A program made the translations under genes and the position numbers. A stretch of DNA of 64,000 nucleotides from Psammoneis japonica (Eukaryota): NCBI GenBank assembly GCA_008632985.1, contig QPGO01000122.1, positions 62,001-126,000 of the forward strand. Reading direction: 5' to 3'. The notes beneath the pieces are model-generated. The model saw only the letters and a program-made list of their open reading frames with translations, ran no database searches and had not been told where the DNA came from. Below, in pieces: positions 38,000 to 64,000 of this stretch. The stretch's first letter is position 1, and the number at the start of each line of letters is the position of its first letter.

Positions 38000-40400
38000 T
38001 TGAGTCTGTTTTACCAATGCACTGTTGGCTGCTTGGAGTTTGTCAAAATGGCAGGTGTGATGGATTCAGAGGTGAAATTTGCTGAGTTGGATGACATTTT
38101 TGCTGTCATCAATTCTCAGAGTGTCAACAGAAAGACCGAGATGTGCAAGCAGACAGGGAAGATGCTGGGAGAGGACATCAAGATGTGAGCCACAGTCTCC
38201 ACAGGAACATTGCAGCAGAAGCACCCAGACAAAATTGCCGCAACCAGCTGCCAGGCAGAAGAAGTCAAAAGGCAGCACCAATGCTGTCTCTGTTGCCACA
38301 GCAATGCCTGGCACTTTCTTGCTTGCCACCCTTGCTTGAGCCATGGATGCTCTTGCTCTCACAACTGTCTCCATCGCTGCAGCTGTGCTTGCCATTTTCT
38401 TTTTTGTGGCTCTTGCTGCTCTAGCAGTGCTCTCCTTCACCTTCTCCCCCAACTTTGCACCAGCAGCTGCACTCACATTCATGAACATTTCATTTGCCTT
38501 GACCTTCTCCCTCACCTTCACTTTCCACAGATGGGTGGTCAGAGTCAGAGTCACAGGAGTGGTCTTGCTTCTTGCCATGGACACATCCACAGTGCTGTGC
38601 TTGCCTCTTCTCTTTCCACTCAGTTGGTGACCACATTTTCCTCTGGGTTCACCACCACATGCACAGCTGTCAGAGTTTTTGTTGCAGCTGCCATTGTTCT
38701 CCACCCAGCTGTTGTTGCTGCCATCACAGCCATTGCAACCATCTCCCCCCTCTTTCCACACTGCTGCTTCCTCTCTTTCCTGAGGGACATGAGGGAGAGC
38801 ATGATGTGGGCTTGAAGGCTTGGGAGGACAGCATGTGCAATCACAATGGCAATCACCAAGGTCATTGTAGATGCCAAAGCAATTGTTTTAAAAATGTGTG
38901 AATGCAAGGGATTGACGCCCTGATCAGAGCCAGGCAAAGTGCTCGGGAAAACAGTCCAGCCACCTCTTGGTGCAATCACGACACTTCCTTGCCAAATCTA
39001 CCTCAGTTCCATCTGATTGCAAATTGTGATGCCACATGCAATGCACTCAATGTGAGCCATTTCTAAAAACACAAAAAGAACACTTTCCACATAAATTGTG
39101 TGTGTGTGTGTGTTTGTCCACACATGTGTGTGCGTTTGTGCACAAATTTGCTTGACAAGGCGGCCTTGTTGGACAAATGCTAAAATCTGTTTTTCAATGC
39201 ATGAGTCAAGCCCTGGCCTGACTTTTGACTTGCTGGCAACAATCTTCACATTGCTTGACTTGTCTTGCCATGATTGGATGTGTTTGATGATGAGAGCAGT
39301 TGTGTGCTGTGGATGCTCTTTTTTGTTGTTGCGCTCAACAACAGGAAAGTTGGCACATGTGTTCAATCCAATGCATGCATCAGAACAGCCAAAACTGCAG
39401 ATGATTGAGTTGGGTGCACTGTCATGTCAGTCACAACAGTGAGAGTGCATTTCATGGGACCACCAGAGGTGTGCTTGCTCCCCTCACTCATTCAGTGTTT
39501 CGTCAACAACCACTTCATGGCTCTCTCTGTCATGTTGCCTCACACTCACATGTGATGTCATGTCTTCCAATGAGAACAACAGCGGCACTTCCAGCAGCAA
39601 TGATGATTCAAGCAAGAAGGACAAGAGTCATTGCACCAGCAGTGAATCCACCAGCGGGAGGGATGGACCCAAGAACAAGTGATGATGTAAAAAGACACCA
39701 GCGTTGTCAAAGAAAACTTCTGTGGTGGCCAAGAAAATCCAAAGAAGAGGTCAAACAATGATGCTGTTCTGATGGCTTGCAAGAGAAATGAGTTGAATGT
39801 GCCCAACACTGCTTCCTGTGAGTCTGCACAGAGACAAAAAAGTGCAAATCTGCAGCACGGTTTGTTCTCTTCTTCAGTCAGAAGATGTTGTCTCCGTGCA
39901 CTTTGGCCAAACATTGCAGTCACACAGGAAGCCCAGAACAGGCACTGCCCAATGGGCTGCTGCATCTGAAGTGAGCTGGCTAAAGTGGCTCTCTCTCGCA
40001 GCAGAGAGAGGAGTGCCCACGGAGCTGTCCATCTGCCTTGTCAGGCCTGGGCTCACTGCATGCTGATGGACAAATTGCGTGAAGCACATGTGCCCACTTC
40101 CAATCAATGATCCTCTGCCACTCATCTGTGCTCTGTGCGGGGTTGCCGGTGCCAGTGCCGGCAGAGAGGTGGAGCAGGATGAGCGTGTGTCCCCAGCGCA
40201 CGCTTTCCAGTTGAAGAAAAACGCAACAAGGATTTTACCTTCTTGCAGATGTCAACAGTCCCGGTCATTTGACACTTCCATCACCTGTCTACGATCAATT
40301 GTCTTTAAATCAATGGGCCTGCAGGTCACAACTTGTTTAAACAATCAAAGCTGTCTTCATCGCAGCTCGCCAAAGACCAACCAAAAATTGCAAAAAAAAT
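38000..40400. other. TpA/CpG-depleted degenerate block, unclassified
   Basis: Composition; Tyr-less spurious ORFs; (TG)n tract near 39097-39112. Confidence 0.5.
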
Positions 40401-41299: not shown

Positions 41300-42915
41300 A
41301 TGGCTGCATGGAGGATGACGAGAAGAAGGCGCTCATGAAGGAAAAGAAGAGACAACATGTTGCTGAACCTGATGGCGGATTCATCAATTCCAGCAAGGAG
41401 AGCACGAGTTTCAGGAGAAGGGTGTCTCAATTGAACGTCTGCCAGCAGTGTGATGGAAGCCTTCAAGATGAAGTCAAGGATCTTCCTCTTTGGACAAGAC
41501 TCGCCATTAGGTCGTCTCCACGAGACATCAGTCAGCAAGAGCTCATCGAGCGATCGACCTTTGTGCTGATTTGCATGCTCAAGATTTGCTGTTGCATTCG
41601 TGGGCGACGATATGCTTTTACGTCAGTGAAGTCATGGCAGGATTCATTCCACTTGTCTACATGTCTGGAGTGGTGTTGAACTTTTTGGCTTTGGGAATAC
41701 CGCAATCGATTGCAAAACCTTTGTTGTTGATCAGCTCTTCTTGATTCTGCTCTGCCCCATCGGTGTTCATTTTGCGCTCGGGGGACTTGTGGAATCCGGA
41801 GGAGCAGTGCTGTGGAGTTTTCTTTGCCCTCTCGGTGGTGCTTTCTTTCGATCGTCAAATGAGTCATCACTTGGTTTAAGATCTGTCTCATGGCTGCTGC
41901 GCCTCTGCTGTTTGGCGAGATCTACAATTGTGATGGAATCACATGAGTGAAGCCCATTATGCATGCGGATTTTGGATTGTGAACATTGTTGGTGTTTTGT
42001 CCATCTGTTTTAGTGCCGCTGTTTGCTTTTCAAGAGCATTGGAAGCTGAGCACGATCGATCCGAGAACCTTTTGCACAACATCCTTCCAAAAAGCATTGC
42101 CAAGTGCGTCAAAATGGGAGAGAATCCCATTGTGGACAAGCACTGTGAGATCAGCCTCTTGTTTACAGATGTTGTCAACTTTACGAAAGCGGCAGCCTCA
42201 GCGAGTCCTGACATTGTTGTTGAAGGCTTTCTGGGGGCGCACTGAATTAATCTCACGCATTGGGCGGTGCCCCTGACCCCACTTTCACCCCAGATTGTCA
42301 AAATATGTAAAACACCCCTGTTTTGTAAAACGCCCTAGTAACAAGCAGCGGCTTGGGTCGTCATGGTGCTTTCGACAGTCGAGTCGAGCAGTTTTTGGTG
42401 TTTGCGTGTTCAAATCGCGCGCACTGACAGTGAATGTTCACTTCCGGGTTCCTTTTGGTTTGGGTTCGCCATCAAAAATGACCGACGACAGACCGACGAC
42501 AGACCGACGAATGCTCGAAAAAGCCTGCTACGTAGGATCCTACGTAAGATATAGGGTAATGAGCCAAAATGTGTGTTTTACACGACGAAGCACGTGTTTT
42601 ACAGAATAACANTGAATAGGAGGGTTGGGACAAACTTTGAAATCCATGTCGGAACTCATGTCGGACCCGTTATTGCCGGCGTGTTGGGAACGAACAGGTT
42701 TGCCTGCGACGTGTGGGGCGATGCAGCAAATACGGCAAGCCGTATGGAATCTCATGGCAAGCCAGGATACATTCATTTAAGCGAGAGTGCACATGAAAAG
42801 GTGAAGGACGTGAGGGGATGCGAATTCAGCCCAGATGGGGAATCGTTTGCAAAGGGCAAGGGGACAATGACGACTTGCTGCGCCAAGCCAAAACCGCTGC
42901 CATGTGTGTCTTTGA
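41300..42915 (+). pseudogene. Pseudogene copy of the class III cyclase, frameshifted and interrupted at ~42240-42612
   Basis: Colinear with 36160-37525 (SFRRRVSQ, LLHNILPKSIA, DVWGDA.NTASRMES); several indels; upstream 41040-41200 resembles 35740-35900. Confidence 0.92.
42240..42612. mobile_element. Insertion in the cyclase pseudogene (probable transposon end) terminating at an assembly N
   Basis: Homology to the cyclase stops at ~42235 and resumes at 42613, right after the N at 42612. Contains GACCGACGACA repeats and the 18-bp palindrome TACGTAGGATCCTACGTA (42529-42546). Confidence 0.5.
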
Positions 42916-43926
42916 TTTCTGGACAGTGCCAACGCCTTCGTGGACGAGCCCCCCACTTACTTCACAACTGCCGGCATGCCAATTGCATCGTTGCATGTTT
43001 CTGGTGGGTGTTGCATGAAGCCTTCTTGGGCAAGTTCTTTGCATGAATCTTCAACGATGTGGACAATCCATAAATGGATCCCACAGTCGAATTCTGCACA
43101 CCCGAAAGCATGGGAATCGACAATTCAACTGTTAAAAAAAGTGCCACTGGTTGTTGTCGTGGCCTCTGCTGTAAAATGTGCAGCGTTTTCGCGCATTTTT
43201 TCACCGATTTCTCCCTCCACCATGGCGGAACCTGCGGCTGGCCCCACCGGTGAAGGATGCACACTTCAGCAATCTCGGATGCCTGACAACACTGTCAGGG
43301 AAATGATGGATGTGTCAGAATTGCTTGAAGTGGGAACAGACATGCCTTTTTCGGCTGTTCAAGACATGCCGCGAAATCCTGTGTCAGCAGTGTGCTGCCG
43401 AAGCACCATCTGTGCCCGTGCATGCCCCCCCTCCAAGTCTTCTTGTGGAGTTGCCAGTGGCCAAGAGAGCTTGAGTGTAATTCAAGGTTGTCGCCCATGC
43501 CCATGCAACCAATTTGGAAAAATGCCAAGAAAACATGATGGGCGCAGACAAAGGAGAGGTCAGGCACTGCGGCGAGGGAAGTGTTGCAGGAGGAGACAAG
43601 TTTGCATCAGGAGAGATTGAAAAAAGTTGGTCGCACCTTGCAAAACTGGCGCACCTGCAATTTGTTGCATCACAGTTCTGGCAAGAGATCAAAAGCTCAT
43701 TGTTCCCGGTGTGTGGCTTTGGGAATGGGAGTGTGGGCATTGGATCATGTGCGAGCGCATGCCTGTTGCGCCCGCATGGTGGCTTCTCTGCATGAGATGT
43801 TCTGTGTGCGGTGCAACATTTTTGTTCTTCCTTTTAGTGCACCGCAGCTGCTGAATTGAGTCTGTTGTTTTAACTCCCCTTAAAAAGGGAGGCAACAAAA
43901 GAAGAGAGCAAAGAGCTCTGCAACCT

Positions 43927-44535
43927 GCCCACCTCACATCAGAAACAACAGAATCATTTGGCACAAACGAGTTGGCTCATTCAGCACAGAACCTTCACAA
44001 GCTGAAACCACATGATAAAAACATCAAACATGATTGACATGGACAGTTCTTTCTGTCAGATTATGACAAGAGGGTTGACGAGTCAAATCTGGACCAGAGT
44101 GCTGTTGGAAACAACAGCGCCATCATGCAAAACACAAGTTTCAATGGAAGGGTGTCTCAAGTGTCTGTCAACAGTGTGATGGGAGCCTCCTTCAAGAAGC
44201 AGAGGTGAAGAGTGCTCCAATTTGGGCTGGGCTTGCCATTTTGTCCTCTTGTCACATGGCTTCAGCCAGCAAGAGCTGACCAAGAGAAAAGCCTTTGTCT
44301 CATTTGCTTGCTCAACATTTGCTGCTGCACTCCAGTCCACAAACAATGACATGCTTTCTTGTCAGGGAAGCAATGGGCTGGACTTGTGCCTTCTCTTGTT
44401 TGCTTTTGTGCAGTGTGGCATTGGCTTTTTTGCTTTTAGAGAAGCCTCAACTGACCACAAGATGCCCATCATTCATCATCTCTGTTTGATTTTGTTCTGC
44501 TCAGCCAGTGCTCATGTTGCGTGGCGAGGCTTGTA
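43927..44535 (+). pseudogene. Third, heavily decayed 5' copy of the cyclase gene
   Basis: Colinear similarity to 35975-36605 (ATGATTGACATGGACAGTTCTTT, GAAGGGTGTCTCAAGTG, CAGCAAGAGCTGA, TTCATCATCTCTGTTTGATT); nearly TpA-free. Confidence 0.8.
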
Positions 44536-44539
44536 GAAC

Positions 44540-47100
44540 ATGGTGAGGCATTGCCCCAACATTTGTTTTGTCTCTTCTTGTTCTTTCCATGCTGTCTTTC
44601 TAACTCTGTTGCTGGGTGCCAAACTCTGCCCCTGCTGGTGCCAGCTTCTTTTCAAAGTAAAGAAAATCAAGCACAGGAGTTGGCAACTGACTGCAGCACT
44701 GTCTCAAGGCTTTGGACAGGACTCTTTGCCAGAAGGCCCTGACAAGCAGGATGGCCCATTGACAACACATTTCTCCACCACCTCCACATCACACTTTTGC
44801 AACATCTTTTGAAAGGGGCAAGCCAAACGTCTTTGTGTGTTTCAGTGCTTGGTTGATGCAGGGCCATTCATTGCCCCAGACATTTGTTTTGTATCTTCTC
44901 ATTCTTTCCATGCCATCTTTCCAACTCTGTTCCAAAGAGCAGTTGCTGGGCACCATGCTCTGCCACTGCTGGTGCCAGCTTCTTTTTGAAGCAAAGAAAA
45001 GAGCAGGAGTTGGCAGCTGACTGCAGCGCTGTCTCAAGGCTTTGGACAGGACTCTTTGCCAGCAGGCCCTGACAAGCATGGCCCACTGACAATGCATTTC
45101 TCCACCATCTCCACATCACTCACTTTTGCAACATCTTTTGAAAGGGGCAAGCTGGCTGTCTCTGTGTGTTTCAGTGCTCAGTTGATGCAGGGCCAGAGGG
45201 TCAAAAACATGTGGTCTGCTGTCAAGAACTCTTTTGCCATGCACAGCAGCAGCTGCTCCACTGGGGTGCATGCCTCCATGTGCACAGCTGAAAAGACTGG
45301 AGAGACAAAGCAAAACCCAAATTGTGTGCTTTGGGCACTGCTGCGCTTCCATCCTGCAACTCTGGCAACAAGCCAGTCCACACCTCCAGCAGTGCACATG
45401 TGGTGGTGTGGCAGGAACATGTGGCACTTTGTCCACGTGGCATGCTGGCTGGTGATGCTGTGCCAAAATGACTGGCAATTGTGACACAAGTGCCTCTCTG
45501 GCAGCCAATCTTTTTGCTTCTTGGATTCTCAACTTGATTGCAGGACAAACCATTGTTGACCAATTGTGCAACCTGTGAGTCCAGTGAGTTAGATGTTCGT
45601 CCACTGAATCGAACAAACACATGCACTCTGTTTTGTTGCTGCTGGGCAATCATCATTCACCCTGAAACAAACAGCCTTGACTTCCTCCTTGGTGTCATGA
45701 TGCTGAGAAGACTGCCTGGTTTCTGAATTGTGTGTCCATGCTGAATCATCATGAGAATCCCACAGTCCCCACCACTGGGGCCAGATGCATGCTCCAATCA
45801 TTGCTGCCCCCCCAGCCCAGTTGTCTGTTGCAGTCATCCTGAGCCTGAGATCCAACTGCAGCCTGGTGAGACCACTGAGCCTTGTTCCACAAAACCAAAA
45901 ACCCACCTTTGAAAAGGTGGCACTGCCTTGTGCAATCTCTTGAGAATCTGACACAGCACAGACACTGGGATGAACTTTGTCTGAATGTGACATTTCCTTC
46001 CAAAAACCATTGTGATTCTGTTCCCCATGACGTCAAGTCATGCAGGGCTGGGGAGGTGTCCACATTGTCACATTTCTTTCACAGGCCTTGAAGAAAGGTT
46101 TGATGTCACTGTCTGTTCTCAGGGTGTTGGAGAATGTGTCTTCCATGGGGTGCTGGCAGTGAGCGCAGCAATCCAACCGGGTGGGGCATTGCACCGGTGC
46201 ACCCATGATTTTGTTTGCAGGAAAGAGATCTTGAACAAGCTTGACAGTGTCAACTCTCCATCAAACAATTTGAGACATGTGTTTGGCATGCACCATTCAA
46301 TCAACAGAATCAAAAACACAGTCAGACCAACCAAACTTCTCTTTCATGTGTTTGCAAAGAGGGGGAGCACCTGCTTTGCAGCACAAGACCAACTTGAGCT
46401 TTGCAATGAGGCATTCTTGGTGCCAACAGTGCATCATCACCCAAAAAGGAACCATGGCGCCATCCAGCCAAAAGCAATCTGCTTTCTGTCATTCAGTTTG
46501 GCAGGTGTGGACAGCGACTCACAAGGATCAGAGTCATCCTGATGTGGGACTTTTTACCCAAGAGACAGGCACCAAGGTCCCAGAGTGGTCATTGATGGAG
46601 CATGCTGATGTCTGCTGGAGAGAGTGGAAAATTTTGTGCCGTGTGTTCTGGTCCAGTGCCAAAGTGTTTGCGACAAGATGGCAGCGGGCAAAGTCAACTC
46701 TGGGTCCGGGCCCGGAGAAAAGACCAGACAGACAGAAACTTGTGCTCACAGCTGCAGAAGATTGCACTCTCCCCTGGCTGCCCATGGACAGCTCTCTTTT
46801 CACAAGATGCTGTGCAGCACTTTGCTTGAAAAGCTTGTGTGCCAGGCTTGGCAGGCACAGGGCGCCCTCTCCTCTCTGTTTTGACTTGCGCTGGGGGACA
46901 AGGAGGACGACAGATGAAAAGATGCTTCCTGACATGGCAGAAATTTGGCAAGGACTTGGAAAGACAAGTCCTTTTGATCCCCCCTCTAATCTTCACACAA
47001 AATTGCCACACTGCACCACACCCAGCAGGAGCAGGAAATCCACAACGCGGCACAATGCAGCAGCACTCGCACTCTGCGCGCACGAACCGCAACTTGAAAC
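44540..47100. other. TpA/CpG-depleted degenerate block with an internal ~320-bp direct duplication (~44548-44865 / ~44870-45195)
   Basis: Repeated GTCTCAAGGCTTTGGACAGGACTCTTTGCCAG and flanks; composition. Confidence 0.6.
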
Positions 47101-52989: not shown

Positions 52990-54770
52990 CCTCTCAGCCA
53001 GAAGAAGAAGAGAAAAGGAAAAGAAAGCAAAAAATGAACATCAATGAAGTTTTGATGCGGGGTGCTGTGCAGCAATGCCGCAGCACGCAGTGCAGACGGA
53101 CGCACACAGGTGCAGACGCGCCACGTCCCGGCGACTTTACAAGTGGTGGAGGCAGGCCGTTGAGGAACTCGGGAGTGGCAGGTGGGGTGCGTTGGGCACG
53201 TCGAATTCGGCACGAAGTGTCGCACGTTTGTGCGCGCAGAAGGATGTGGATCGCCAACGCCTGTTGGAACACAGCACACAGCAGTCAGCACACCTCTGTC
53301 ATCACGGCGTCAGAATGGCGGAGGAGAACATCGTTCCGTCTGGCAAAACAGCTCCGGAAGTCATGCGAGAACTCACGGGCACTGAAGGCATGACTGCGGC
53401 GGCAGTTGCCATGACTCCAACAAACCAAGAGTGTGTGAACGCAAATGTCACACAAAATGGAGCAACAGAGAAAAAAATGGATTTGCAACAACAAACGACG
53501 TGTTCCAGCTGCACGTGAACCAAATCGTGCACAAAAAAGACATTTGCACAATTTTTGCGTGGTCCCCAACTTACGATCGAACTTTCACCACCAAAAGAGT
53601 AGATTTGCACAAATGCAAATGTTTTGCAACACTGACAAAACTCGTGTGAGTGTTGCAATGTCGTTGTCATTGTGCTGTCTGTGTTTTTCATTGCATCAAA
53701 AGATTCGCAACACAACGGATGATTTTCGGCTAAAACATTGCCATTGTTTGGATGTTGCCTGAATGTGTCTTTCTGCGATGCTGCTTGGCAGGTTTTCCAC
53801 CTGCAAAGAAATCTCAGCATAAATCTGCTGACACAAAATCAGCGTTGAGTCTGCTGAGGAAGTTTGTGACACATGTCCCATGAGGATTTGAACACCCCTC
53901 AAAAAATCATTCAAATGTTCATGCTCTAGAAGCCCACAAAAGTCAATCCATCCAAGCATTTTGCATGAAAATGCTGCACACACTGAAGGATGCACAAATT
54001 GTGTTCAAAATCGATTGTCGTTTTGTGCGTCACCTGGGACTGGAACACGTCAAACAAAGAAGTCAGACGAGCCAAAGAAAACTGGAGAGGACAAGAAAAG
54101 GGTGCAGACAGATGCGGAACTGTTTCAGTCAGCAATGAACAAAGAAGACGGGGAGAAGATTGCGGTGGAAGAAGCAAAAGCGGCGCTCGAGCTTGCTTCG
54201 GGAAATTGTGGTGTCTCATCTGCACTTGTGCCAGACAACACGAGAGTGGACAGTTGTCGTGTGGAAGCAACGGTCGTGCCCAGGGATGATTCAACCATGG
54301 AGGAGCTAAAGGCAGCATGGGCGGCAGCACCACCACAGACTGGTGGGAGATTTTTCACCGAGGAGGAGCTGGAACAAGCGGGAGCAACGGAGCAGGAGAA
54401 GGAGCAAGCAAGGATCCTGCGGAACAAGCACAGACAGAAACAATGGAATGGGCACAAGCCACAACTAACTGTTTGGCAAAGACAACCGCGTCAATGCGTA
54501 AATTTCGTGCACTTGGACTTTCACTTGAGCCACCGCGGATCGAGCATGGACAGAAATGGTGGAATGGGCGCAAGCCACAACTGGCTGTTTCACAAAGACA
54601 ACCGCATCAACGTGCAAATTTCACGCACTTACACTTTCACTTAAGCCACGCACCTCGAATTAGACAACATCAACATGCACAGTTAACTCGTGAAACCTCA
54701 CAGAAGACAGAACGGTCAGAAGCAAAACAACCAGCACCACGCACTACTCTGGCCCCAACGCACATTTATT
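52990..54770. other. TpA-depleted degenerate block with CpG partly retained; ~115-bp-period duplication at ~54437-54648
   Basis: Composition; repeated GGAATGGGC.CAAGCCACAACT...AAAGACAACCGC...ACTTTCACTT.AGCCAC. Confidence 0.5.
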
Positions 54771-55070
54771 AGTCAGGTCGCGTGGGTCGCGCAGAAGTGC
54801 GCACCGTACAGCACAGTAGCACCCTGTTTCGAAAGAACAACCGTTATATGTTTTAATTAATTTGGACGCCCGGCGCAAAACTCACTTAACAGGTAAAAAA
54901 ATGCAGCAAAATGATTGGTGCAAGCAATCGTCACGCCTCTATTTTCTGATAGCAGCGAGCGCGGCAATCCAAAATCTTTTGGTTTCAGACTTCGAAGTAG
55001 AGAGTTCCCCTCTACCAGCACTAGAGAGAGAGGAGGAACCAACATCGATGGAAAGCTGAGAGTCTGCTCA

Positions 55071-57558
55071 TTCCGGAATAGATTTGGCAACTTTCAGAAG
55101 AAGTAACCCGAAAGTTCTCTGAAAGTTGATGTAAATATAACATCACATGTCTGTACACACACACAACCTTGAAACGCGCCAGAATTTTTACATCATCAGA
55201 TTCACCACCACCCGCAAGACTTCTGCGATACCGTGCTAAAGTTCGAGACTAGAGACACGGCACGGAGGAGATATCGTCTCACAAAAAAGCAGACGCAGCC
55301 ACACAGCTGTCACAGAAGCCACCCGCAACAACAGAGCAGCCGTGCAGCATGCCCACTTCGACCCTTGAGGCGCCAATCATGAAGGCGTCTAGGGCCCCTT
55401 CTACCATAAGTGGCGATAAGTCTGCAATCAAAACGTTTGACGCGTTTCAAGACAAAAAACAAGACAAGCCGTTTCACGGATTGGAGGAACGTCATGTGGA
55501 TGGATGCCACCTCAGGACACTTGTGATGCGCTTCAGCAAGTTCTTGTCGGATGAGCCCATCTATCGGTATGACAATCCCTCCAACGGGCTAGTAGGAATT
55601 GACGGAAAGCAGCGAATTTTTGGAAAGGTCAAAGAAGCGCTAAAAATGAAGTTCCCCAAGCACCCTGACTGGGAAGACGAGGACAAGTGGTGCAAGCCTC
55701 TGTTCAAAGATGTGGCAAAGGCCACTGATAAAGCCAACCTCCTTAGCATGGAGCATTCTGACAAAAGGACTTTGCCCCTGGTTCCAAACGTGTCTTCAGA
55801 ATATGTTCGAGCCAAGCAGCGAAATACTATTCTTACGTCTGACAGAAATTCAATGTTGAGACGCGAGAACGGTGCATTCGCAAACGACATCGAGACGTTG
55901 CTTCTTGCTCTTGTTCTGCAATGCAATTATCCAATGATGAATAATGGCCCTCTTCAGCAGCGTTGCTGGATTTTGATGGGTGCTATGGCTGCTGGACGTG
56001 GAGGGGAAGTGAGGCATCAACGGTGTGATGAATGGTTCTGGGATTTATTTTATGAGAATTTGGAAGCAACGTGGTGTGAGCCGAAGACTGTGGATTTGTA
56101 TGGACTCCTCTTCCCACCAAACAAAAAGTCTTATCTCTTTGATCTCTACCATGCTTTCGCGTGTTTCTATTCTTGTGAGAAAGGTCTCTATCGTCCAGAC
56201 AGCATGGAGAAGGAGCTCCACAAGTACACTTTTCCAGACTTGTGGAGCGTGAGCGACAAGTATGTTGCCGCTAAGTTGACGTCTATTATTCGAAGCAAGG
56301 TCAACCCGGTTCTACAGAACGATTGTTCTTCTAAGTCTATTCGAGTTGGTATGGCTACATTCTTGAATTCGCATCGAGGAGTGTCAGTTGAAGAAGCGGA
56401 CGCTCGAGTTGGATGGGCGCCCGGAGCTGCCAATGGCAAGACTTACAAACGAATTACACCGCAGCTCACTCTTCCAGCGGCAAACGCGATGATGGGCTGG
56501 GATGATACTGCCGGCAAGAAATTTGCTCCAAACTTGGAATGCCTTGGGAGCCATGTACAAGATGATGTTGAACGTCTCATTGAAAAATTGTGTGTGATCT
56601 CTGACTCTCTTGCTCAATTTCTGAAAGGAGGGGAGCTGCGTCCCTTCTTGCGTTCTTGCACGGCTAGTGTGATTCGGCATCACGCTGAAGTTTCGAAGGA
56701 GCTTCGTCAAAACCATCAAATCGTGTACACGTTGGAGCGTGCTGCAGCAGAAGCGAAGATTCGTGATGGTGACACGGCTGACACCTCACAAGTGCTTCGG
56801 ATCTGGGGAAAGAAAATAGACGCTAGCTTTCAAGACCGCAACCCGGATCTTTCAAGTGACATCAACCTTGCTTTACAGATAAAGCAGCAGAATGAGCTAC
56901 TGTCTCGTGTATTGTCAGTGTGTGATGCACAACGTACCGAGCTTTCCGAGCAAGCCCACGCGATTCGCAACTTGGAGATGGCTCAGCTTGAGGCCAATCA
57001 GTCCAGTAAGAAAAGGAATGTTGAACTCCTGTCATCGGAGGAGGAAGATAGCACGACGGATTTTGCGGACGAAAAAACATCCAATCGAGACGGCGGCATC
57101 GAGTGCAACGTTGTTGATGAAAACGCCGGCTCCACTCAAAACAACAATGTGGCTGCCTATGCTGTAAGCCCACCAGATGCTGATGCCACTGCTGCTGATG
57201 ATGGTGACGCGCCGGCTGCTTCTCGACGTCGTGTGGATTCTGACGAGTCAGCCACTGCGACTCAGCCTGTCACGGCCTCCACGCGAAAGCAACGACCTCC
57301 CGCTGTCGCGACACTGTTCTCGGCCGGAGTTGTGAGTAAGAAGTTTTCAAACAAAAAGAAAAAGAAACTGACATTGCAGGAGCAAGTGGATGGCTTGGTA
57401 AACAGCACAGGCGCAAAAATCTCTCTGCATGCATGCCCAAGTTTCTTCAAGCAGCATGGACACCTTTCTTCGTCATCCAAGGAGCGGCTTTTGCACCTCA
57501 AGTTTCCAAACAGTGAAGCAGAGCCACAGAAGCTGCGCGCGAAAGTTCAATTTTTCCG
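55071..57558 (+). mobile_element. Internally deleted, inverted copy of the tyrosine-recombinase/RusA element (2488 bp)
   Basis: Reverse complement of 59506-61968 joined to the reverse complement of 57726-57752; TTCCG at both ends (55071-55075 and 57554-57558). Confidence 0.9.
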
Positions 57559-57862
57559 AATCTCCATGCCGTACCGTAGTCCATTTCGGTTGCTCGCCAA
57601 TCAAAGAAATGAGGCACAACATTTTAATTATTTTAATAATTATATATATTTCAATGATCACACCCAAAACTCATACCTCATCTTCCGAAAAAACCGCCAG
57701 AGCTTACCCCCCCATTCCCCCCCCACGGAAAAATTGAACTTTCGCGCGCAGCGCGAACTTTCGGCGAAAGTTGCCCCCTTTTGGAGCGCGAAGCGCTCCA
57801 ACTTTCGGCTGAAAGTTGGGAAACGGAGGGGGCGCGCGGAGGAAAAAAAGTTCGTCCGTTGA
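55349..57862 (+). CDS. Tyrosine recombinase, C-terminally truncated at 57532; the ORF runs on into non-homologous sequence
   Basis: AAGRGGEVR (catalytic Arg box), SSKSIRVGMAT (HxxR-like), ARVGW, GKTY (catalytic Tyr candidate); many Y->C/H changes versus the other copy. Confidence 0.75.
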   Translation: MPTSTLEAPIMKASRAPSTISGDKSAIKTFDAFQDKKQDKPFHGLEERHVDGCHLRTLVMRFSKFLSDEPIYRYDNPSNGLVGIDGKQRIFGKVKEALKMKFPKHPDWEDEDKWCKPLFKDVAKATDKANLLSMEHSDKRTLPLVPNVSSEYVRAKQRNTILTSDRNSMLRRENGAFANDIETLLLALVLQCNYPMMNNGPLQQRCWILMGAMAAGRGGEVRHQRCDEWFWDLFYENLEATWCEPKTVDLYGLLFPPNKKSYLFDLYHAFACFYSCEKGLYRPDSMEKELHKYTFPDLWSVSDKYVAAKLTSIIRSKVNPVLQNDCSSKSIRVGMATFLNSHRGVSVEEADARVGWAPGAANGKTYKRITPQLTLPAANAMMGWDDTAGKKFAPNLECLGSHVQDDVERLIEKLCVISDSLAQFLKGGELRPFLRSCTASVIRHHAEVSKELRQNHQIVYTLERAAAEAKIRDGDTADTSQVLRIWGKKIDASFQDRNPDLSSDINLALQIKQQNELLSRVLSVCDAQRTELSEQAHAIRNLEMAQLEANQSSKKRNVELLSSEEEDSTTDFADEKTSNRDGGIECNVVDENAGSTQNNNVAAYAVSPPDADATAADDGDAPAASRRRVDSDESATATQPVTASTRKQRPPAVATLFSAGVVSKKFSNKKKKKLTLQEQVDGLVNSTGAKISLHACPSFFKQHGHLSSSSKERLLHLKFPNSEAEPQKLRAKVQFFRISMPYRSPFRLLANQRNEAQHFNYFNNYIYFNDHTQNSYLIFRKNRQSLPPHSPPTEKLNFRAQRELSAKVAPFWSAKRSNFRLKVGKRRGRAEEKKFVR

Positions 57863-58098
57863 ATCTTGGCTGTGAATCGTGAGAGTGCGTTAAGTCGTGC
57901 GTCAAGTCGTGCGTTGAGTCGTCTTGAAATTTGAAAAAAAATCAAAAATCAATCGAAACACGAAAGCTCACGCGATGAGCGATGGAAACATGTTACCGTC
58001 GCACGCGAATCCTCATACGGAAGGCCTTTTCTCCTACTGTACTGTGGAGGATACTGTAGAGAAGTTTCCTGAATACCCAAAGTGCAGTGGATGGCAGA

Positions 58099-58725
58099 AT
58101 GGTTAAGAAGCGAAGTTTTGAGGGAGGAACTGCCGACGACGCAACAGTTGTAGACAGCGCAAGCGACGACGAAGGTGGAAAAGACTTTGAGAGTGTGGCT
58201 ATTGCTCCAAACCTACCGGCATCATCAAGATTTGGCAGTGCTGGCAAAGGTGAACCATCAAGGAAGAAGAAACGAGGGCGTCCTCGAAAGATCCGATCGC
58301 CCAAATTCTCCATCTCGGACACGCCCATATTTTCATACACCGGATCTTCCATTGAATTTGACGTTGTCGGAAAGCCAATGCCAAAGTCAAGACCAAAGCA
58401 TGGGTGGAATGGAAATGTTTGCAATCCAAACCAAGCTGATGAGAAAGAGTTTGCAAGTGTAGCATCAGATCTCTGCCGATCAAGACTAGATTCAGTACCA
58501 AAGTTCCGTGACGGTGTGTTGTTGAAGGCTCGGATTGAATTTACTTTTCCTGGGAAGAGTCTCAAGGATACAGGAGACATTGACAATCTCTGTAAGTTTG
58601 TTTTGGACAGCTTAAACACAGTATTGTATCAAGATGATTGGCAAGTGTCACACTTATCGGCGAAAAAGGTGCTTGCTTCGTCCGAATCTGCCGGACGTAC
58701 AGCAGTCGAATTGAAGCGAATTTGA
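58099..58725 (+). CDS. rusA: RusA-family Holliday junction resolvase with an N-terminal AT-hook
   Basis: FDVVGKPMPKSRPK N-terminal strand; GDIDNLCKFVLDSLNTVLYQDDWQV matches the RusA DxDNxxK..D.L....DD.QV catalytic signature; KKRGRPRK AT-hook. Confidence 0.85.
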   Translation: MVKKRSFEGGTADDATVVDSASDDEGGKDFESVAIAPNLPASSRFGSAGKGEPSRKKKRGRPRKIRSPKFSISDTPIFSYTGSSIEFDVVGKPMPKSRPKHGWNGNVCNPNQADEKEFASVASDLCRSRLDSVPKFRDGVLLKARIEFTFPGKSLKDTGDIDNLCKFVLDSLNTVLYQDDWQVSHLSAKKVLASSESAGRTAVELKRI

Positions 58726-59133
58726 AACAAATAATTCTATACGATTATAACAAGCACTGTATCACCTACTCACTTGACGTGTGCCTAGAGTAGTCATGTT
58801 TTATTTTAGCCCACTTGTGTCGTGAGACAAGCACTTGCTTCGTCTGAATCGGCTGGACGCACGGTCGTCTCTCTGAACCAAATTTGAAATAGATAGTATA
58901 TTATTTCACTTGGCATGTGCTATACCTTACTTTGGTGCACTTCTTTGACTGGCAAGTTGTGGAGCCGTCGGCATGAAAAGTATACATTTTTCGTCTGAAT
59001 AGATCGGACGCATGACAATCTGGCGGACGCAAAATCTGGAGTCGTTGCACCGCACCAAATATGAAATAGACAGTTCTATAAGCTTCTATTGGTACAGTAA
59101 CACACAATTACTTTACATACATTTTACTTTCAC

Positions 59134-61690
59134 CTAATTCTTTGCATGTGGGTTCACGGGTTTTTTCGGACTAGTTCCAGAAGCTTTGGATACAACCTTT
59201 TTCACAAACCCTACCAAGACGCTCGTTCGCTGCTCGCCGATGGTTGATATGTTCTGATTCTTCTTGTACGCTATAACTCGAGCACCTAGACCTATGAAGG
59301 TAGGCTGTGCTCTTCCCTTCTTCTTGTTATCCAGGGGGCTCTTCATGCCAGCGTCTTCTTCCATCTTTCTCATTTTTTGCAGGCAAGTGTTTTGCACGGC
59401 GTAACAAACATTGTGGAATTCGACGGATGCATGGTCATGAATACGTATCGTATGCCACTGGTCTTCCGTCATGACGTGTTCTAGGAGCTCCATAGCTGCT
59501 TTAAACTTCTGTGGCTCTGCTTCACTGTTTGGAAACTTGAGGTGCAAAAGCCGCTCCTTGGATGACGAAGAAAGGTGTCCATGCTGCTTGAAGAAACTTA
59601 GGCATACATGCAGAGAGATTTTTGCGCCTGTACTGTTTACCAAGCCATCCACTTGCTCCTGCAATGTCAGTTTCTTTTTCTTTTTGTTTGAAAACTTCTT
59701 ACTCACAACTCCGGCCGAGAACAGTGTCGCGACAGCGGGAGGTCGTTGCTTTCGCGTGGAGGCCGTGACAGGCTGAGTCGCAGTGGCTGACTCGTCAGAA
59801 TCCACACGACGTCGAGAAGCAGCCGGCGCGTCACCATCATCAGTAGTAGTAGCATCAGCATCTGGTGGGCTTACAGCATAGGCAGCCACATTGTTGTTTT
59901 GAGTGGAGCCGGCGTTTTCATCAATAACGTTGCACTCGATGCCGCCGTCTCGATTGGATATTTTTTCGTCCGCAAAATCCGTCGTGCTATCTTCCTCCTC
60001 CGATGATAGGAGTTCAATATTCCTTTTCTTACTGGACTGATTGGCCTCAAGCTGAGCCATCTCCAAGTTGCGAATCGCGTGGGCTTGCTCGGAAAGCTCG
60101 GTACGTTGTGCATCACACACTGATAATACACGAGACAGTAGCTCATTCTGCTGCTTTATCTGTAAAGCAAGGTTGATGTCACTTGAAAGATCCGGGTTGC
60201 GGTCTTGAAAGCTAGCGTCTATTTTCTTTCCCCAGATCCGAAGCACTTGTGAGGTGTCAGCCGTGTCACCATCACGAATCTTCGCTTCTGCTGCAGCACG
60301 CTCCAACGTGTACACGATTTGATGGTTTTGACGAAGCTCCTTCGAAACTTCAGCGTGATGCCGAATCATACTAGCCGTGCAAGAACGCAAGAAGGGACGC
60401 AGCTCCCCTCCTTTCAGAAATTGAGCAAGAGAGTCAGAGATCATATACAATTTTTCAATGAGACGTTCAACATCATCTTGTACATGGCTCCCAAGGCATT
60501 CCAAGTTTGGAGCAAATTTCTTGCCGGCAGTATCATCCCAGCCCATCATCGCGTTTGCCGCTGGAAGAGTGAGCTGCGGTGTAATTCGTTTGTAAGTCTT
60601 GCCATTGGCAGCTCCGGGCGCCCATCCAACTCGAGCGTCCCGCTTCTTCAACTGACACTCCTCGATGCGAATTCAAGAATGTAGCCATACCAACTCGAAT
60701 AGACTTAGAAGAATAATCGTTCTGTAGAACCGGGTTGACCTTGCTTCGAATAATAGACGTCAACTTAGCGGCAACATACTTGTCGCTCACGCTCCACAAG
60801 TCTGGAAAAGTGTACTTGTGGAGCTCCTTCTCCATGCTGTCTGGACGATAGAGACCTTTCTCACAAGAATAGAAACACGCGAAAGCATGGTAGAGATCAA
60901 AGAGATAAGACTTTTTGTTTGGTGGGAAGAGGAGTCCATACAAATCCACAGTCTTCGGCTCACACCACGTTGCTTCCAAATTCTCATAAAATAAATCCCA
61001 GAACCATTCATCATACCGTTGATACCTCACTTCCCCTCCACGTCCAGCAGCCATAGCACCCATCAAAATCCAGCAACGCTGCTGAAGAGGGCCATTATTC
61101 ATCATTGGATAATTGCATTGCAGAACAAGAGCAAGAAGCAACGTCTCGATGTCGTTTGCGAATGCACCGTTCTCGCGTCTCAACATTGAATTTTTGTCAG
61201 ACGTAAGAATAGTATTTCGCTGCTTGGCTCGAACATATTCTGAAGACACGTTTGGAACCAGGGGCAAAGTCCTTTTGTCAGAATACTCCATGCTAAGGAG
61301 GTTGGCTTTATCAGTGGCCTTTGCCACATCTTTGAACAGAGGCTTGTACCACTTGTCCTCGTCTTCCCAGTCAGGGTGCTTGGGGAACTTCATTTTTAGC
61401 GCTTCTTTGACCTTTCCAAAAATTCGCTGCTTTCCGTCAATTCCTACTAGCCCGTTGGAGGGATTGTCATACCGATAGATGGGCTCATCCGACAAGAACT
61501 TGCTGAAGCGCATCATAAGTGTCCTGAGGTGGTATCCATCCACATGACGTTCCTCCAATCCGTGAAACGGCTTGTCTTGTTTTTTGTCTTGAAACGCGTC
61601 AAACGTTTTGATTGCAGACTTATCGCCACTTATGGTAGAAGGGGCCCTAGACGCCTTCATGATTGGCGCCTCAAGGGTCGAAGTGGGCAT
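59134..61690 (-). CDS. Tyrosine recombinase (~851 aa once a +1 frameshift at 60639-60641 is corrected)
   Basis: ORFs 60533-61690 and 59134-60651 join when one extra G is removed (the other copy has GG); R / S-K-S-I-R / W / Y catalytic motifs; long low-complexity C-terminal extension. Confidence 0.85.
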
Positions 61691-62254
61691 GCTGCACGGC
61701 TGCTCTGTTGTTGCGGGTGGCTTCTGTGACAGCTGTGTGGCTGCGTCTGCTTTTTTGTGAGACGATATCTCCTCCGTGCCGTGTCTCTAGTCTCGAACTT
61801 TAGCACGGTATCGCAGAAGTCTTGCGGGTGGTGGTGAATCTGATGATGTAAAAATTCTGGCGCGTTTCAAGGTTATGTGTGTATACAGACATGTGATGTT
61901 ATATTTACATCAACTTTCAGAGAACTTTCGGGTTACTTCTTCTGAAAGTTGCCAAATCTATTCCGGAAAAGAAAAATTGGTCGCACTGTCCGTCCGTCGC
62001 CATGCATCCGAGATGAAAATCAGACGTGGTGCAAGTAGCTAGTGTGGTGAATCATCGGCCGCGATGCTAAAAAGAAGACACTGTTGCACCACATCATCAA
62101 AAGAACATAGAGACAAGAGATCACCATCATTAAGATCTACGTTGACAATCTAAAGCACTGGTTTTTAAACACACAATTGCGCTGAAACCCCCAAGCAATC
62201 TCTCCACGAGTCTTCACCGGCAATCTCAAGATCCCGCCGCCGACGGTTGGTGTG

Positions 62255-63445
62255 TTACATGGGCTCCAACCACTGCCAGTGCTAGCAGCACACAGGCTCC
62301 CACTGCCACCAGCACCTGCAGCAAAAGGCTCCAACTGCCTCCAGCGCCACTGGCACACAGGCGCCCACCGTCACCACTGGCTCCCACCGCCACCACTGCC
62401 AGCAGTGCACAGGCTCCCACTGCCACCACTGCCAGCAGCAAAACACCTCCAATCACCACCACTGCCAGCAGCGTGCAGGGGCACCATCAACACCAGATGA
62501 AAAGAATCCAACCGCCTCGAATGCCAGTGGCACCCACCGCCACCAGACAAAAAGGACAGTGGTGCACAGGCTCCAACCGCCGCAAGCGCTGGCAGCTGTG
62601 CAGGGTGCAGCCTCCCACTGCCACCAGTGCCAGCATCATGCAGGGGCACCCACCGCCACCAGATAGAAATGACAGCAGTGCACAGGCTCCAACCGCTGCC
62701 AGTGCCAGCAGCTGTGCAGGATGCAGCCTCCCACTGCCGCCAGTGCCAGCATCACACGGGGGTGCCAACCGCCACCAGATAAAAAAGATGGTTGTGCACA
62801 GGCTCCAACATTTGCCAACGCCAGCAAATGTGCAGGATGCAGGCTCACACCGCCACCAGTGCTGCAGCAGCAGCACACAGGCTGCTGCTGCCGCCAGCGG
62901 TTGTGGCAAAAGGCTCCAACCGCCTCCAGTGCCAGCGGCACACAGGATCACACCACCACCAGTGCTGGCCTTGACACACAGGCTCCCACTGCAACCACTG
63001 GCCAGTGGCAAAAAAGCTCCAACCACCACCAGTCCCAACAGCACACAGGGGCACCCACCGACATCACATGGCGAGGCTCCAAACGCCTCGATGGTCACCA
63101 GCACACAGGCTCCAACCGCCGGATGCAGGCTCACACCGCCACCAGTGCTGCAGCAGCAGGACACAGGCTGCCACTGCCACCAGTTCTAGCAGCAAAAGGC
63201 TCCAACCACCTCCAGTGCCAGCAGCACACAGGATCACACCGCCACCAGTGCTGGCCTTGATGTGCAGGCTCCCACTGCAACCACTGGCTAGCAGCAAAAA
63301 AGCTCCAACCACCACCAGCACCAGCATCATGCAGGGGCACCAACCGCCACCAGATGAAAAGGACAGCAGTGCACAGGCTCCAGCCACCCCCAGTGCAAAA
63401 GCAGCAAAAGGCTCCTGCCGCCGCCAGTGCTGCCACATTCAGCCC
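62255..63445. repeat. Degenerate minisatellite array built on CACAGGCTCC(C/A)AC(T/C)GCCACCAGTGC(C/T)
   Basis: The core GGCTCC(A/C)AC recurs many times with irregular spacing; nearly TpA-free. Confidence 0.8.
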
Positions 63446-64000
63446 TGCCACAACACACAGTCCAGTCCATGAATTTATGTTGAAAACAACACCGTCAGAG
63501 ATGCCACCAACGAGACAGATCTCTTTCAAACTTTCCAACACATTGTCACATCTAGAAGCACACACTGTGGCATGGCTGCGGGAACGCACTGAAGACGCCG
63601 CCGCCGCATCATCATCATCGTGAAAGCGCCGTTTGCGTTGGCCTCACGCAAATTTGAATGAGGCCTGATTGGTGCAACTGCCATTTCAGCATCACCCCAC
63701 GTAACATTGCGCACGTAGAATCCTGCACAAGTTTTGTGAACGCATGGAAGGACAGGCCGAGTGCGACCATTTTTTCAAATCTCCACAGTCCATTGTGGAA
63801 CACTTTTGACATGCTAAACACGACCTGATTTGGACCGTTGGTATTTTAATGCATTCTACAGACATGTGGGCGTGCATTAAAATAGGTCTGGGGGTCAAAA
63901 ACTCCAAATCGCGACCCCCAAGTGTTCCACAGTTTCAAAGTCATCGAAAATGTCCAAAAACGCCTTCTGACTGCACTTTGGCTGTGAACATCACGGCAAG

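Follow-up and report, generated by a model that had tools for sequence, protein, structure and literature searches.

Two adjacent copies of one gene, lying in inverted orientation within the 64,000 nucleotides analysed here (hereafter the window), differ almost only at TpA dinucleotides. This locus raises the question of which copy has changed, by what kind of process, and whether the same process has acted elsewhere in the window. The left copy, L (55071–57532, forward strand), is a truncated inverted duplicate, and the right one, R (59506–61968, reverse strand), belongs to a full gene at 59134–61786. The spacer between them (57533–59505, forward strand) is unique sequence containing an ORF for a RusA-type resolvase (58060–58725). 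A preliminary description of the locus had placed the end of the left segment at 57558, whereas the repeat stops at 57532, and positions 57532–57558 form an arm of a different inverted repeat, 27 bases long.

L and R probably represent copies of a Crypton-type tyrosine recombinase gene from a multi-copy element. The predicted structure of the protein (mean pLDDT 77.6) has the tyrosine recombinase fold. Its best Foldseek matches in the PDB were Flp, Cre, XerH, Ndc10 and lambda integrase, with a best E-value of 2.6e-3 at probability 1.00 and no match at E 1e-3 or better, and its neighbours in the Atlas carry the domains NDC10_II, GCR1_C, DUF3435, DUF3504 and Phage_integrase. Four residues conserved in at least 90% of 52 family sequences (R249, K278, R364 and Y398) can be read as the putative catalytic Arg...Lys...Arg...Tyr. 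Pfam matched no family on the recombinase or the 52 family members, and a profile search of PDB sequences with the recombinase family returned coiled-coil noise only. A metagenome search with a single-protein query recovered one locus (L001, 42% identity), whose normal composition (TA observed/expected ratio, o/e, 0.52; CG 1.1) is uninformative for the process described below.

Substitutions between the inverted copies and their direction

Global alignment of L with the reverse complement of R revealed 24 substitutions and one 1-base indel. At 23 of the substituted sites R reads TA and L reads either TG (14) or CA (9), so that the preliminary estimate of about 23 TpA substitutions turned out to be exact, and every amino-acid example then cited is present in the pair. 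The remaining substitution, the single AA to AG change mentioned in the same description, lies at 55845, and the indel (L 56398, R 60640) arises from one additional G within a G run, present in R and splitting its reading frame; the alignment holds nothing else beyond TpA. All 24 substitutions are A:T to G:C changes with the mutated state in L. There are no transversions among them, and no site in the full alignment reads TA in L but TG or CA in R. The probability that at least 23 of 24 substitutions would fall on the 176 TA bases among the 2463 positions is 1e-25, and the one-sidedness of 23:0 (p = 2.4e-7) bears out the proposal that only one of the two adjacent copies was mutated. Likewise, no CpG differs between the copies (0/129, each copy having 129), many TAs survive in the left copy (65, against 88 in R), and the presence of both TG and CA products is as expected from a process on both strands. 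Clustering of TG versus CA products by strand was not significant (9 runs vs 12 expected, p = 0.13).

L comprises 182 bases 5′ of its ORF (55253–57862), and 22 of its changes fall within this frame, 18 of them non-synonymous and seven converting Tyr codons into Cys or His. Changed TAs appeared mildly clustered among all TAs of the pair (26 runs vs 35 expected, p = 0.011), and the spacer-side third of L was the most affected, with 11/25 TA sites changed versus 6/32 and 6/31 in the other thirds. Since changes are densest on the spacer side, plain spreading from the TA-poor left flank is a poor fit.

Polarity was taken from protein homologs of the recombinase family. Compared with 49 homologs, R has at conserved columns the residue typical of the family (Tyr, Leu), in place of which L has Cys, His or Pro. 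In the numbering of L, the homologs have Tyr and other family residues rather than Cys at positions 147 (Y21/W13/F4 vs C1), 258 (Y26/F7/W7 vs C0), 447 (Y23/F23 vs C0) and 358 (F14/Y8 vs C0), aromatic residues rather than His at positions 255 (F35/Y2 vs H1) and 168 (F18/Y3 vs H0), and aliphatic residues rather than Pro at position 729 (L18/I12/V4 vs P0); the lone column that favours L is position 448 (V19 vs M2). The Tyr and Cys content of R equals the family median, and L is Tyr-poor and Cys-rich. Beyond the repeat, the tail of R corresponds to a C-terminal domain common to at least 30 family members, while the ORF of L extends into homolog-free sequence whose translation has no match among family members. 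In addition, at 56591–56594 one contig of sequencing run X1 reads CACA, R reads TATA and L reads TGTG, so that TATA would be the common intermediate. The family consensus thus matches R and not L, the left copy is the mutated one as originally proposed, and, judged by the homologs, the change ran from TA to TG/CA in L with R keeping the ancestral state.

Target context, other duplicates and TA-free islands

The motif, as it emerges from the counts, is wider than TpA and reads 5′-TAY-3′ (A to G), equivalently 5′-RTA-3′ (T to C). Between L and R, TAY was changed in 21/106 cases versus 2/70 for TAR (p = 0.001), and an independent set made up of a tandem pair and three gene/pseudogene alignments gave 46/119 for TAY versus 19/99 for TAR (p = 0.002). 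The TAs that remain in 23 kb of islands (see below) fit the same rule: 46 of these 77 lie in YTAR, 30 have TAY on one strand and one has it on both, against 133/481/287 for genic TAs in the same classes (chi-square p = 3e-23). A preference for WA, suggested earlier from the single AA to AG change, found no support, AA having changed in 1/385 cases and TA in 23/176; the extra context is the 3′ pyrimidine.

A second fresh patch (35014–35394, forward strand) was found within a tandem duplicate at 32890–35502, whose first copy occupies 30286–32893 and whose corresponding TA sites lie at 32405–32785. Of the first copy's 39 aligned TAs, 18 have become TG (12) or CA (6) in the second, accounting for 18 of the 28 differences, and none changed in the reverse direction (18:0). 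CG was kept at 41 of 43 sites, only one of the two changed sites having become TG/CA. The untouched copy is flanked by islands on both sides.

Older stages were found in copies of a host gene. An intact adenylate/guanylate cyclase gene (35897–37905, forward strand; ORF 36092–37525) supplied the reference state for two decayed copies, both on the forward strand. Copy 1 (41318–43045), at an intermediate stage with CG largely kept, showed TA to TG/CA at 16/29 and 16/20 aligned TAs, with three and one changes in reverse. Copy 2 (43848–44532), inside a full island, showed TA to TG/CA at 15/21 (reverse 3) and CG to TG/CA at 20/28, only two CG being kept. Many transversions and indels have accumulated in these copies as well, and in a purine/pyrimidine-coded comparison the gene/pseudogene identities rose from 80, 83 and 69% to 91, 93 and 84.5%. 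Within the window, the TpA changes thus far described affect a truncated recombinase copy, one member of a tandem pair and the decayed copies of a host gene.

The largest end-state island (13501–24000) has TA o/e of 0.00–0.14, CG o/e of 0.03–0.36 and CA/TG o/e of 1.6–2.2, and further islands lie at 9001–11000, 26501–28000, 30501–32000, 33001–35000, 38001–40000 and 43501–47000. Overall the islands have TA o/e of 0.05, CG o/e of 0.13 and CA/TG of 1.82, that is, about 95% of expected TA and 87% of expected CG are absent. The sum of TA, CG, CA and TG is 23.9% of dinucleotides in islands and genes alike, each island has roughly as many CA as TG, GC content is 0.49 in islands versus 0.48 in genes, and at a resolution of 500 bases the islands have sharp borders. 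Nothing above the Pfam cut-off was found in 70 island ORFs of at least 116 aa (134 ORFs of at least 90 aa), which gave two weak sub-cut-off matches. Purine/pyrimidine-coded self-comparison uncovered no hidden repeats among the islands, and tblastn with 151 family proteins found no traces of the recombinase family there, all 402 segments falling within 55–62.1 kb.

The losses of TA and CG followed a definite order. In L, 23/88 TA sites were lost versus 0/129 CG (p = 1.4e-10), and in the tandem pair 18/39 versus 2/43, in agreement with the early suggestion that the TpA process is the faster one. Throughout the window, 53 of the 128 500-base windows were TA-low, of which 42 were CG-low, nine CG-mid and two CG-normal; 11 of the 53 are thus short of low CG, and among the 128 none was CG-low with TA kept. 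Immediately left of L, an intermediate-stage stretch (53001–54500) combines TA o/e of 0.04–0.12 with CG still at 0.55–1.0. As far as composition and alignments tell, the process is caught at three stages: fresh, TA gone with CG kept, and fully converted. The suggestion that the TpA process is mechanistically separate from 5-methylcytosine deamination also appears reasonable, given that the two alter different base pairs and do so in different directions.

Most probably, a regional TpA-specific A:T to G:C process at 5′-TAY-3′ recently struck L, sparing R, and also made the islands. Such a process would convert A:T to G:C at this motif on either strand in selected, probably silenced stretches, with L, the truncated inverted duplicate, as a recent object of attack and its full-length neighbour spared. 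Run to completion and joined by a slower decay of CpG to TpG/CpA, it would leave islands free of TA and CG and rich in CA/TG; the islands, about 40% of the window, would be the end product of the two. The step would be enzymatic, most likely with a deaminase drawn to silent chromatin that turns adenine in DNA into inosine, which makes an adenine deaminase the candidate agent. Its role may be to guard against DNA of mobile or foreign origin, and the accompanying loss of CpG would be ordinary 5-methylcytosine deamination.

Alternative explanations

It seems unlikely, though worth weighing, that the mutations are real but stem from thymine chemistry or repair synthesis without any adenine deaminase. 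An A to G change on one strand is T to C on the other, and the motif can equally be written RTA to RCA. In a thymine route, the thymine of RTA would be modified (as a 5-hydroxymethyl- or 5-formyl-uracil type of base) and mispair with G, and the 5-hydroxymethyluracil of dinoflagellates prefers TpA. In a repair route, error-prone patch repair in poorly repaired silent chromatin would leave WA to WG errors of the polymerase-eta type; polymerase eta prefers WA, and the pseudogene copies do show a weak excess of AA to AG (26 vs 12 in reverse, summed). A polymerase of this type should nevertheless mutate AA often and give transversions, yet the L/R pair has AA changed in 1/385 cases against 23/176 for TA, and 0/24 transversions. 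A fungal-type RIP read backwards, with L original and R mutated by C to T at CpA (TpG on the other strand), would match the dinucleotide pairs exactly. The odd AG/AA site, CT/TT on the other strand, would even fit the second-best context of RIP, which is CpT, and L and R are a duplication. This inversion of the direction is nonetheless highly improbable, as the outgroup assigns the conserved Tyr/Leu to R at seven columns and to L at none, and the C, H and P states of L occur 0–1 times among 43–48 homologs. Besides, the 64-kb window contains no TA-rich stretches, only TA-free ones, the intact cyclase gene retains TA at sites that read TG/CA in its dead copies (16:3, 16:1 and 15:3), and the CACA/TATA/TGTG triple needs TATA in the middle. 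Nor are both duplicates mutated, as RIP would have it, all 23 changes being in L and all 18 in the second tandem copy.

An artefact, in which base modification of TpA (and CpG) in silent DNA was misread as TG/CA by the sequencer, is very improbable too; contigs of two sequencing runs, X1 and X2, bear on it. We aligned 398 contig pieces at the L/R locus (identity bands 90/111/106/91), which include many diverged copies of the recombinase family and differ from the window in a transition-rich manner (426/610 places, summed). If a symmetric mark were misread strand by strand, the outcome would be symmetric TG/CA, and at several sites the letters of L are not positively present in the aligned contigs: at 55164, 55523 and 57113 only the R letter appears, the depth of the other letter equalling the total depth. 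Since contigs drop variants, however, these R-only letters neither confirm nor refute the states of L. Contigs of the same sample and the window disagree at the TA sites 58145, 58421 and 56591–56594, which is at most a hint of changes arising de novo in culture; at the first two, X2 contigs read TA and the window CA and TG. Against a misreading, TA to TG/CA differences among family copies recur in high-depth X1 contigs at 55563, 55568 and 56261 (5–9 contigs each), alongside the CACA at 56591–56594, and the transversions and indels of the pseudogene copies are those of real old DNA. Known miscall rates lie far below what the TA and CG deficits of the islands would require. Lastly, L could be a retro-copy of a transcript that underwent A-to-I editing before reverse transcription: an inverted pair could yield double-stranded RNA, and RNA adenosine deaminases of the ADAR type typically prefer a 5′ U/T (10.64898/2026.01.13.699255). 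We consider this barely conceivable, given that L has A to G (15) and T to C (9) changes interleaved, where a one-strand cDNA would show one type, that it reaches 182 bases upstream of its ORF, that it lies inverted beside its parent, and that the same changes occur in the tandem pair and in single-copy pseudogenes.

Relation to known systems and implications

Judged from the mutational signature, the closest known case to the regional TAY-directed process proposed here is the TpA-only hypermutation of the chlorarachniophyte Bigelowiella natans. According to the text of the preprint by Mettrop et al., mutation-accumulation lines of this alga showed de novo TpA to TpG/CpA changes solely within integrated viral regions (NCLDV and virophage), at a rate of about 6e-7 per site per generation, with 124 clusters in a genome of about 95 Mb and a viral-region Rho of 0.45; a deaminase acting at silent chromatin and turning adenine into inosine was proposed there (10.64898/2026.01.13.699255). 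Both systems have in common that almost only A to G or T to C changes at TpA occur on both strands, yielding TpG and CpA, that they are confined to regions with a lasting shortage of TpA and surplus of CpA+TpG, and that they act unevenly on equivalent units, which are lines in one case and copies in the other. They differ in the host, a rhizarian in B. natans and, on weak evidence, probably a diatom here, as well as in the targets, which are viral inserts there and a transposon-type copy, a tandem duplicate and pseudogenes in the window. Across some 40% of the window, conversion is near complete (TA o/e 0.05, against the Rho of 0.45 given for the viral region). The 3′ pyrimidine and the subsequent loss of CpG are features of the window; the text of the B. 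natans preprint, figures and supplements aside, gives no flanking context and does not mention CpG.

RIP of ascomycete fungi resembles the process in that transitions come in a burst at particular dinucleotides, disable DNA that is duplicated or mobile, and leave composition islands. It nevertheless changes C to T at CpA and creates TpA, which the process in the window destroys, and as a rule it leaves its mark on both copies, of which one has stayed intact here. RIP is moreover tied to duplication, while the target in B. natans is single-copy. Decay of methylated CpG shares the TpG/CpA products and is very probably what removed the CG of the islands in a second step, but cannot explain the L/R pair (0/129 CpG changed) and lowers GC where the TpA process raises it. 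In animals, APOBEC (C to U, on cDNA) and ADAR (A to I, on double-stranded RNA), which edit retroelements and viruses, likewise inactivate mobile or foreign sequences through clustered context-specific transitions; however, they mark one strand of the cDNA or RNA of a replicating element, and in the window both strands of chromosomal DNA are affected, non-mobile pseudogenes included. Apart from B. natans, our literature search found TpA-directed hypermutation reported for no organism, diatoms included. Mutation accumulation in Phaeodactylum gave a GC to AT bias with CG as the most mutable context and, in the part of the paper available, no TpA hot spots (PMC6604790), and the accessible part of a paper on diatom methyltransferases mentions RIP solely as fungal background (PMC9998398).

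So far, natural sequence-specific A:T to G:C editing of chromosomes is known from one 2026 preprint on one chlorarachniophyte. The window extends this signature to a probable diatom, a member of a distant and ecologically dominant group, provides in TAY a sharper motif that constrains the enzyme, and shows that host-gene duplicates and a transposon copy are affected, beyond viral inserts. Somewhat short of an even chance, we would give to the wider proposal that diatoms, and hence at least two branches of SAR, possess an active chromatin-guided, TAY-specific A:T to G:C DNA-editing defence which, in a matter of thousands of generations, rewrites DNA that is silenced, duplicated or foreign. Such a defence would constitute the first and faster half of a two-step erasure, of TA and then of methylated CG, which would turn any silenced sequence into a CA/TG landscape poor in stop codons and devoid of TA and CG, and would thereby represent an adenine-based counterpart of RIP, possibly with one deaminase for both A and C. 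If the process were general, it would explain the odd CA/TG-rich 'dark' DNA of algal genomes, have consequences for the annotation of repeats and for estimates of mutation rates, and point to a natural editor of DNA adenine (or thymine).

Substitutions between the two recombinase copies

Global alignment of the left recombinase copy (L, 55071–57532, forward strand) with the reverse complement of its right neighbour (R, 59506–61968, reverse strand) yielded 24 substitutions and one 1-base indel. R has TA at 23 of these sites, as the preliminary description had counted, where L shows TG at 14 and CA at 9; both strands are hit, and beyond them the full alignment has only a single AA (R) to AG (L) change, at 55845, and the indel. 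No transversions occurred along the whole length and, also as described, no CpG differences (129 CpG per copy). The indel is an additional G within a GGG run of R, which splits its reading frame. A repeat search resolved the pair into two abutting inverted arms (55071–56399/60640–61968 and 56398–57532/59506–60640), each 99% complementary; the start and the repeat nature first proposed for the left copy (55071–57558) hold, but the repeat ends at 57532, and 57532–57558 is a separate 27-base inverted-repeat arm with a perfect partner at 57726–57752. The resulting 221-base unit (57532–57752), which adjoins the truncated end of L and has an AT-rich core retaining many TAs, looks like a miniature inverted-repeat element; at 57630 other copies in contigs of sequencing run X1 have TG and the window TA.

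The probability that at least 23 of 24 substitutions fall on TA bases by chance is 1e-25, and R holds 88 TAs against 65 in L. The changes are confined to one of two adjacent copies, as had been claimed (23:0, p = 2.4e-7), and TA was lost at 23/88 sites versus 0/129 for CG (p = 1.4e-10). Among the 22 changes inside the ORF of L, 18 are non-synonymous and seven Tyr codons are lost; L is therefore free of selection at the protein level. Along L the hit TAs show mild clustering (p = 0.011), with the highest density in the spacer-side third (11/25 TAs), and the proposed comparison of TG and CA products gave no significant strand clustering in L (9 runs versus 12 expected, p = 0.13).

When every TA was scored as two candidate adenine targets, one per strand, 5'-TAY-3' (Y, pyrimidine) was hit at 21/106 and TAR at 2/70 (Fisher p = 0.001), equivalent to T>C at RTA. 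By 3' base, hits numbered 13/57 for T, 8/49 for C, 2/37 for G and 0/33 for A; by the base 5' of the adenine, they numbered 23/176 at TA, 1/385 at AA, 0/367 at CA and 0/354 at GA, so that the WA preference earlier read into the single AA to AG change was not sustained. An independent set, comprising the tandem pair and three gene/pseudogene alignments described below, gave 46/119 TAY and 19/99 TAR (p = 0.002). The change is thus A:T>G:C at TAY, on both strands.

Direction of change and the target gene

Read in reverse, the L/R pattern is that of classical fungal RIP (CpA>TpA), and a polarity test was accordingly required. Polarity was judged from protein outgroups of the recombinase. A word-based search gave one relative (P0001, 50% identity) and an exhaustive HMMER search 491 with E ≤ 0.001, 49 of which were aligned with L and R. 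Seven conserved columns side with R, in line with the direction originally proposed. L carries Cys at positions 147 (family Y21, W13, F4; Cys once), 258 (Y26, F7, W7), 447 (Y23, F23) and 358 (F14, Y8), the last three without Cys in the family; His at 255 (F35, Y2; His once) and 168 (F18, Y3; no His); and Pro at 729 (L18, I12, V4; no Pro). Position 448 is the sole column of opposite sign (V19 versus M2, favouring L), and the other changed columns are unconserved. Tyr and Cys contents are 2.9% and 1.4% in R, 2.9% and 1.7% as family medians, and 2.0% and 2.1% in L. Past the repeat, the ORF of R runs on into a C-terminal domain matching 30 listed family members (e.g. P0002, 48% over 92 residues), while the continuation of the L ORF matched no family member; since only the extension of R matches, R is the complete parental gene, of which L is an inverted duplicate cut short at one end. 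At 56591–56594 a high-depth run X1 contig reads CACA, R TATA and L TGTG, and TATA alone is one step per dinucleotide from both others. As outgroup columns, Tyr/Cys content, the R tail and this contig agree, RIP acting on R was rejected: it is L that lost TAs, R representing the ancestral state.

The 869-aa ORF and 51 aligned relatives had no Pfam match. Among its language-model neighbours, unnamed clusters found most often in Bacillariophyta and Oomycota came first, followed by clusters with NDC10_II, GCR1_C, DUF3435, DUF3504 and Phage_integrase. The best PDB matches of its AlphaFold model (mean pLDDT 77.6) were Flp, Cre, XerH, Ndc10 and lambda integrase (best E 2.6e-3, probability 1.00, none ≤ 1e-3), and conservation in the family alignment reaches 90% or more at R249, K278, R364 and Y398. 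We read the gene as a putative Crypton-type tyrosine recombinase; Kojima and Jurka reportedly linked Cryptons, Ndc10 and GCR1_C in 2011. Many copies of the family occur in the source sample, as 398 run X1 contig pieces at ≥80% identity show.

Between the two copies, a spacer ORF (58060–58725, forward strand) encodes a RusA-type Holliday-junction resolvase (Pfam RusA, 8e-11), noted here in an apparently eukaryotic genome. Because this stretch also has diverged copies in run contigs (pieces with 47–49 other letters), the resolvase may travel with the recombinase in one mobile element. At unique spacer sites, contigs of run X2 have TA where the window has CA (58145) and TG (58421); together with the CACA reading of run X1, these differences within one sample suggest that TpA changes are polymorphic, among haplotypes or subclones, and may reach past the duplicated part. 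Just left of L, 54500–55000 is a high-copy repeat, as judged from its run X1 depth of 1300–3800 versus about 300 in unique spacer; its TA observed/expected ratio (o/e) is normal (0.54), and a 115-base tandem pair (54419–54533/54535–54649) lies in this region. Genes in the window are long and intron-poor, and two secreted-looking proteins have Phe directly after the predicted signal-peptide end, the heterokont plastid-targeting motif. In both protein atlas comparisons the nearest cluster had Bacillariophyta as its most frequent phylum; together these traits are weak evidence for a diatom source.

Other duplicates and TA-poor islands

Self-comparison of the window located further duplicates. The tandem duplicate 30286–32893/32890–35502 has 28 differences: 18 of 39 aligned first-copy TAs are TG (12) or CA (6) in the second copy, all inside 35014–35394, with no change the other way (p = 8e-6); CG is kept at 41/43. 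Both this pair and L/R bear out the claim that TpA loss is faster than CpG loss. The spared copy of the tandem pair sits between two islands. An intact adenylate/guanylate cyclase gene (Guanylate_cyc, 6e-52) served as polarity reference for two decayed copies. In copy 1 (41318–43045, with a single N at 42612), TA>TG/CA affected 16/29 and 16/20 aligned TAs (reverse 3 and 1) and CG>TG/CA 15/41 and 5/22 (reverse 9 and 9); in copy 2 (43848–44532, within an island) the figures were 15/21 (reverse 3) and 20/28 (reverse 0). The gene-to-pseudogene polarity matches that of L/R, with TA lost early and CG late. A 172-base repeat (50667–50838/52094–52268; 87% identity, 1.43 kb apart) lies in genic DNA of normal composition, and since its differences are mostly ordinary (transversions 10/20), the TA process does not strike all duplicates.

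Dinucleotide profiles show the window as an alternation of gene-like DNA (TA o/e ~0.5, CG ~1.0) and sharply bounded islands (TA 0.00–0.14, CG 0.03–0.36, CA/TG 1.6–2.2) at 9001–11000, 13501–24000, 26501–28000, 30501–32000, 33001–35000, 38001–40000 and 43501–47000. Pooled, 23 kb of islands have TA o/e 0.05, CG 0.13, CA/TG 1.82 and GC 0.49, versus 0.52, 0.97, 1.18 and 0.48 in 25 kb of genes. The TA+CG+CA+TG sum is 23.9% in both, the outcome expected if TA and CG turn into CA/TG, and CA and TG are about equally frequent in each island (biggest imbalance 1240 versus 1139), indicating that both strands are used. Among 128 windows of 500 bases, 53 are TA-low (42 CG-low, 9 CG-mid, 2 CG-normal) and none is CG-low with normal TA; intermediate stretches include 53001–54500, with TA 0.04–0.12 and CG 0.55–1.0. 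Of the 77 TAs surviving in islands, 46 sit in YTAR and so lack TAY on both strands, whereas TAY is present on one strand in 30 and on both in 1, against 133, 481 and 287 of 901 genic TAs (chi-square p = 3e-23); that survivors obey the TAY rule links the recent changes in L with the process behind the islands. A GC-rich (0.56) nested direct-repeat array at 62146–63472 (units ~33, 46, 116 and 286 bases), with several open, Pro/Thr/Ala/Ser-rich frames, is partly depleted (TA 0.13–0.43, CG 0.29–0.51).

Mechanism and precedent

The TAY process is regional and copy-specific, outpaces CpG decay and accumulates to near completion. It is probably the work of an enzyme on DNA, with a putative defence role; the leading candidate is conversion of adenine to inosine by a deaminase drawn to silent chromatin. 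The CpG loss in these silenced stretches probably reflects 5mC deamination. Thymine modification at RTA would fit formally as well as adenine deamination. A polymerase-eta-type repair signature fits poorly, given that AA is spared and transversions are absent, as does an origin of L by RNA editing and retrocopying, against which both change types are interleaved in L. A base-modification read artefact would accord with the lack of run contigs that positively show the letters of L, but is unlikely, since high-depth contigs differ in this way between copies of the family, and ordinary transversions and indels occur in the pseudogenes too.

In full-text literature searches, the one relevant work was that of Mettrop et al. 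(bioRxiv 10.64898/2026.01.13.699255). In mutation-accumulation lines of B. natans, two integrated viral regions received 231 of 302 new substitutions; A>G or T>C changes made up 230 of these, all on TpA, at ~6e-7 per site per generation and in some lines only, and adenine deamination was proposed, with an ADAT2 homologue as candidate (10.64898/2026.01.13.699255). The main text does not contain 'CpG', 'diatom', 'trinucleotide', 'context' or 'flanking'. The available text of a Phaeodactylum mutation-accumulation study reports no such TpA signal. For B. natans, 211 changes at 6169 TpA sites in 3132 generations (10.64898/2026.01.13.699255) give, by hand calculation, ~1e-5 per TpA per generation, at which the loss of 23 of 88 TAs in L would take of the order of 3e4 generations; by this borrowed rate, L would indeed be very young.

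Loss of TA destroys TAA and TAG, hence the long spurious ORFs on both island strands; of 134 stop-to-stop island frames of at least 90 aa, 70 were scanned and gave no family match above the cut-off, and such ORFs (9001–47000) could be mis-annotated as genes. The B. natans genome holds 124 TA-poor clusters in ~95 Mb (10.64898/2026.01.13.699255), whereas seven islands occur here in one 64-kb window, which makes B. natans an unlikely source of this DNA. We file the finding as a further, far more extensive instance, in another lineage, of a process of the B. natans kind; new here are the TAY context, targets other than viral DNA and the order of TA and then CG loss.
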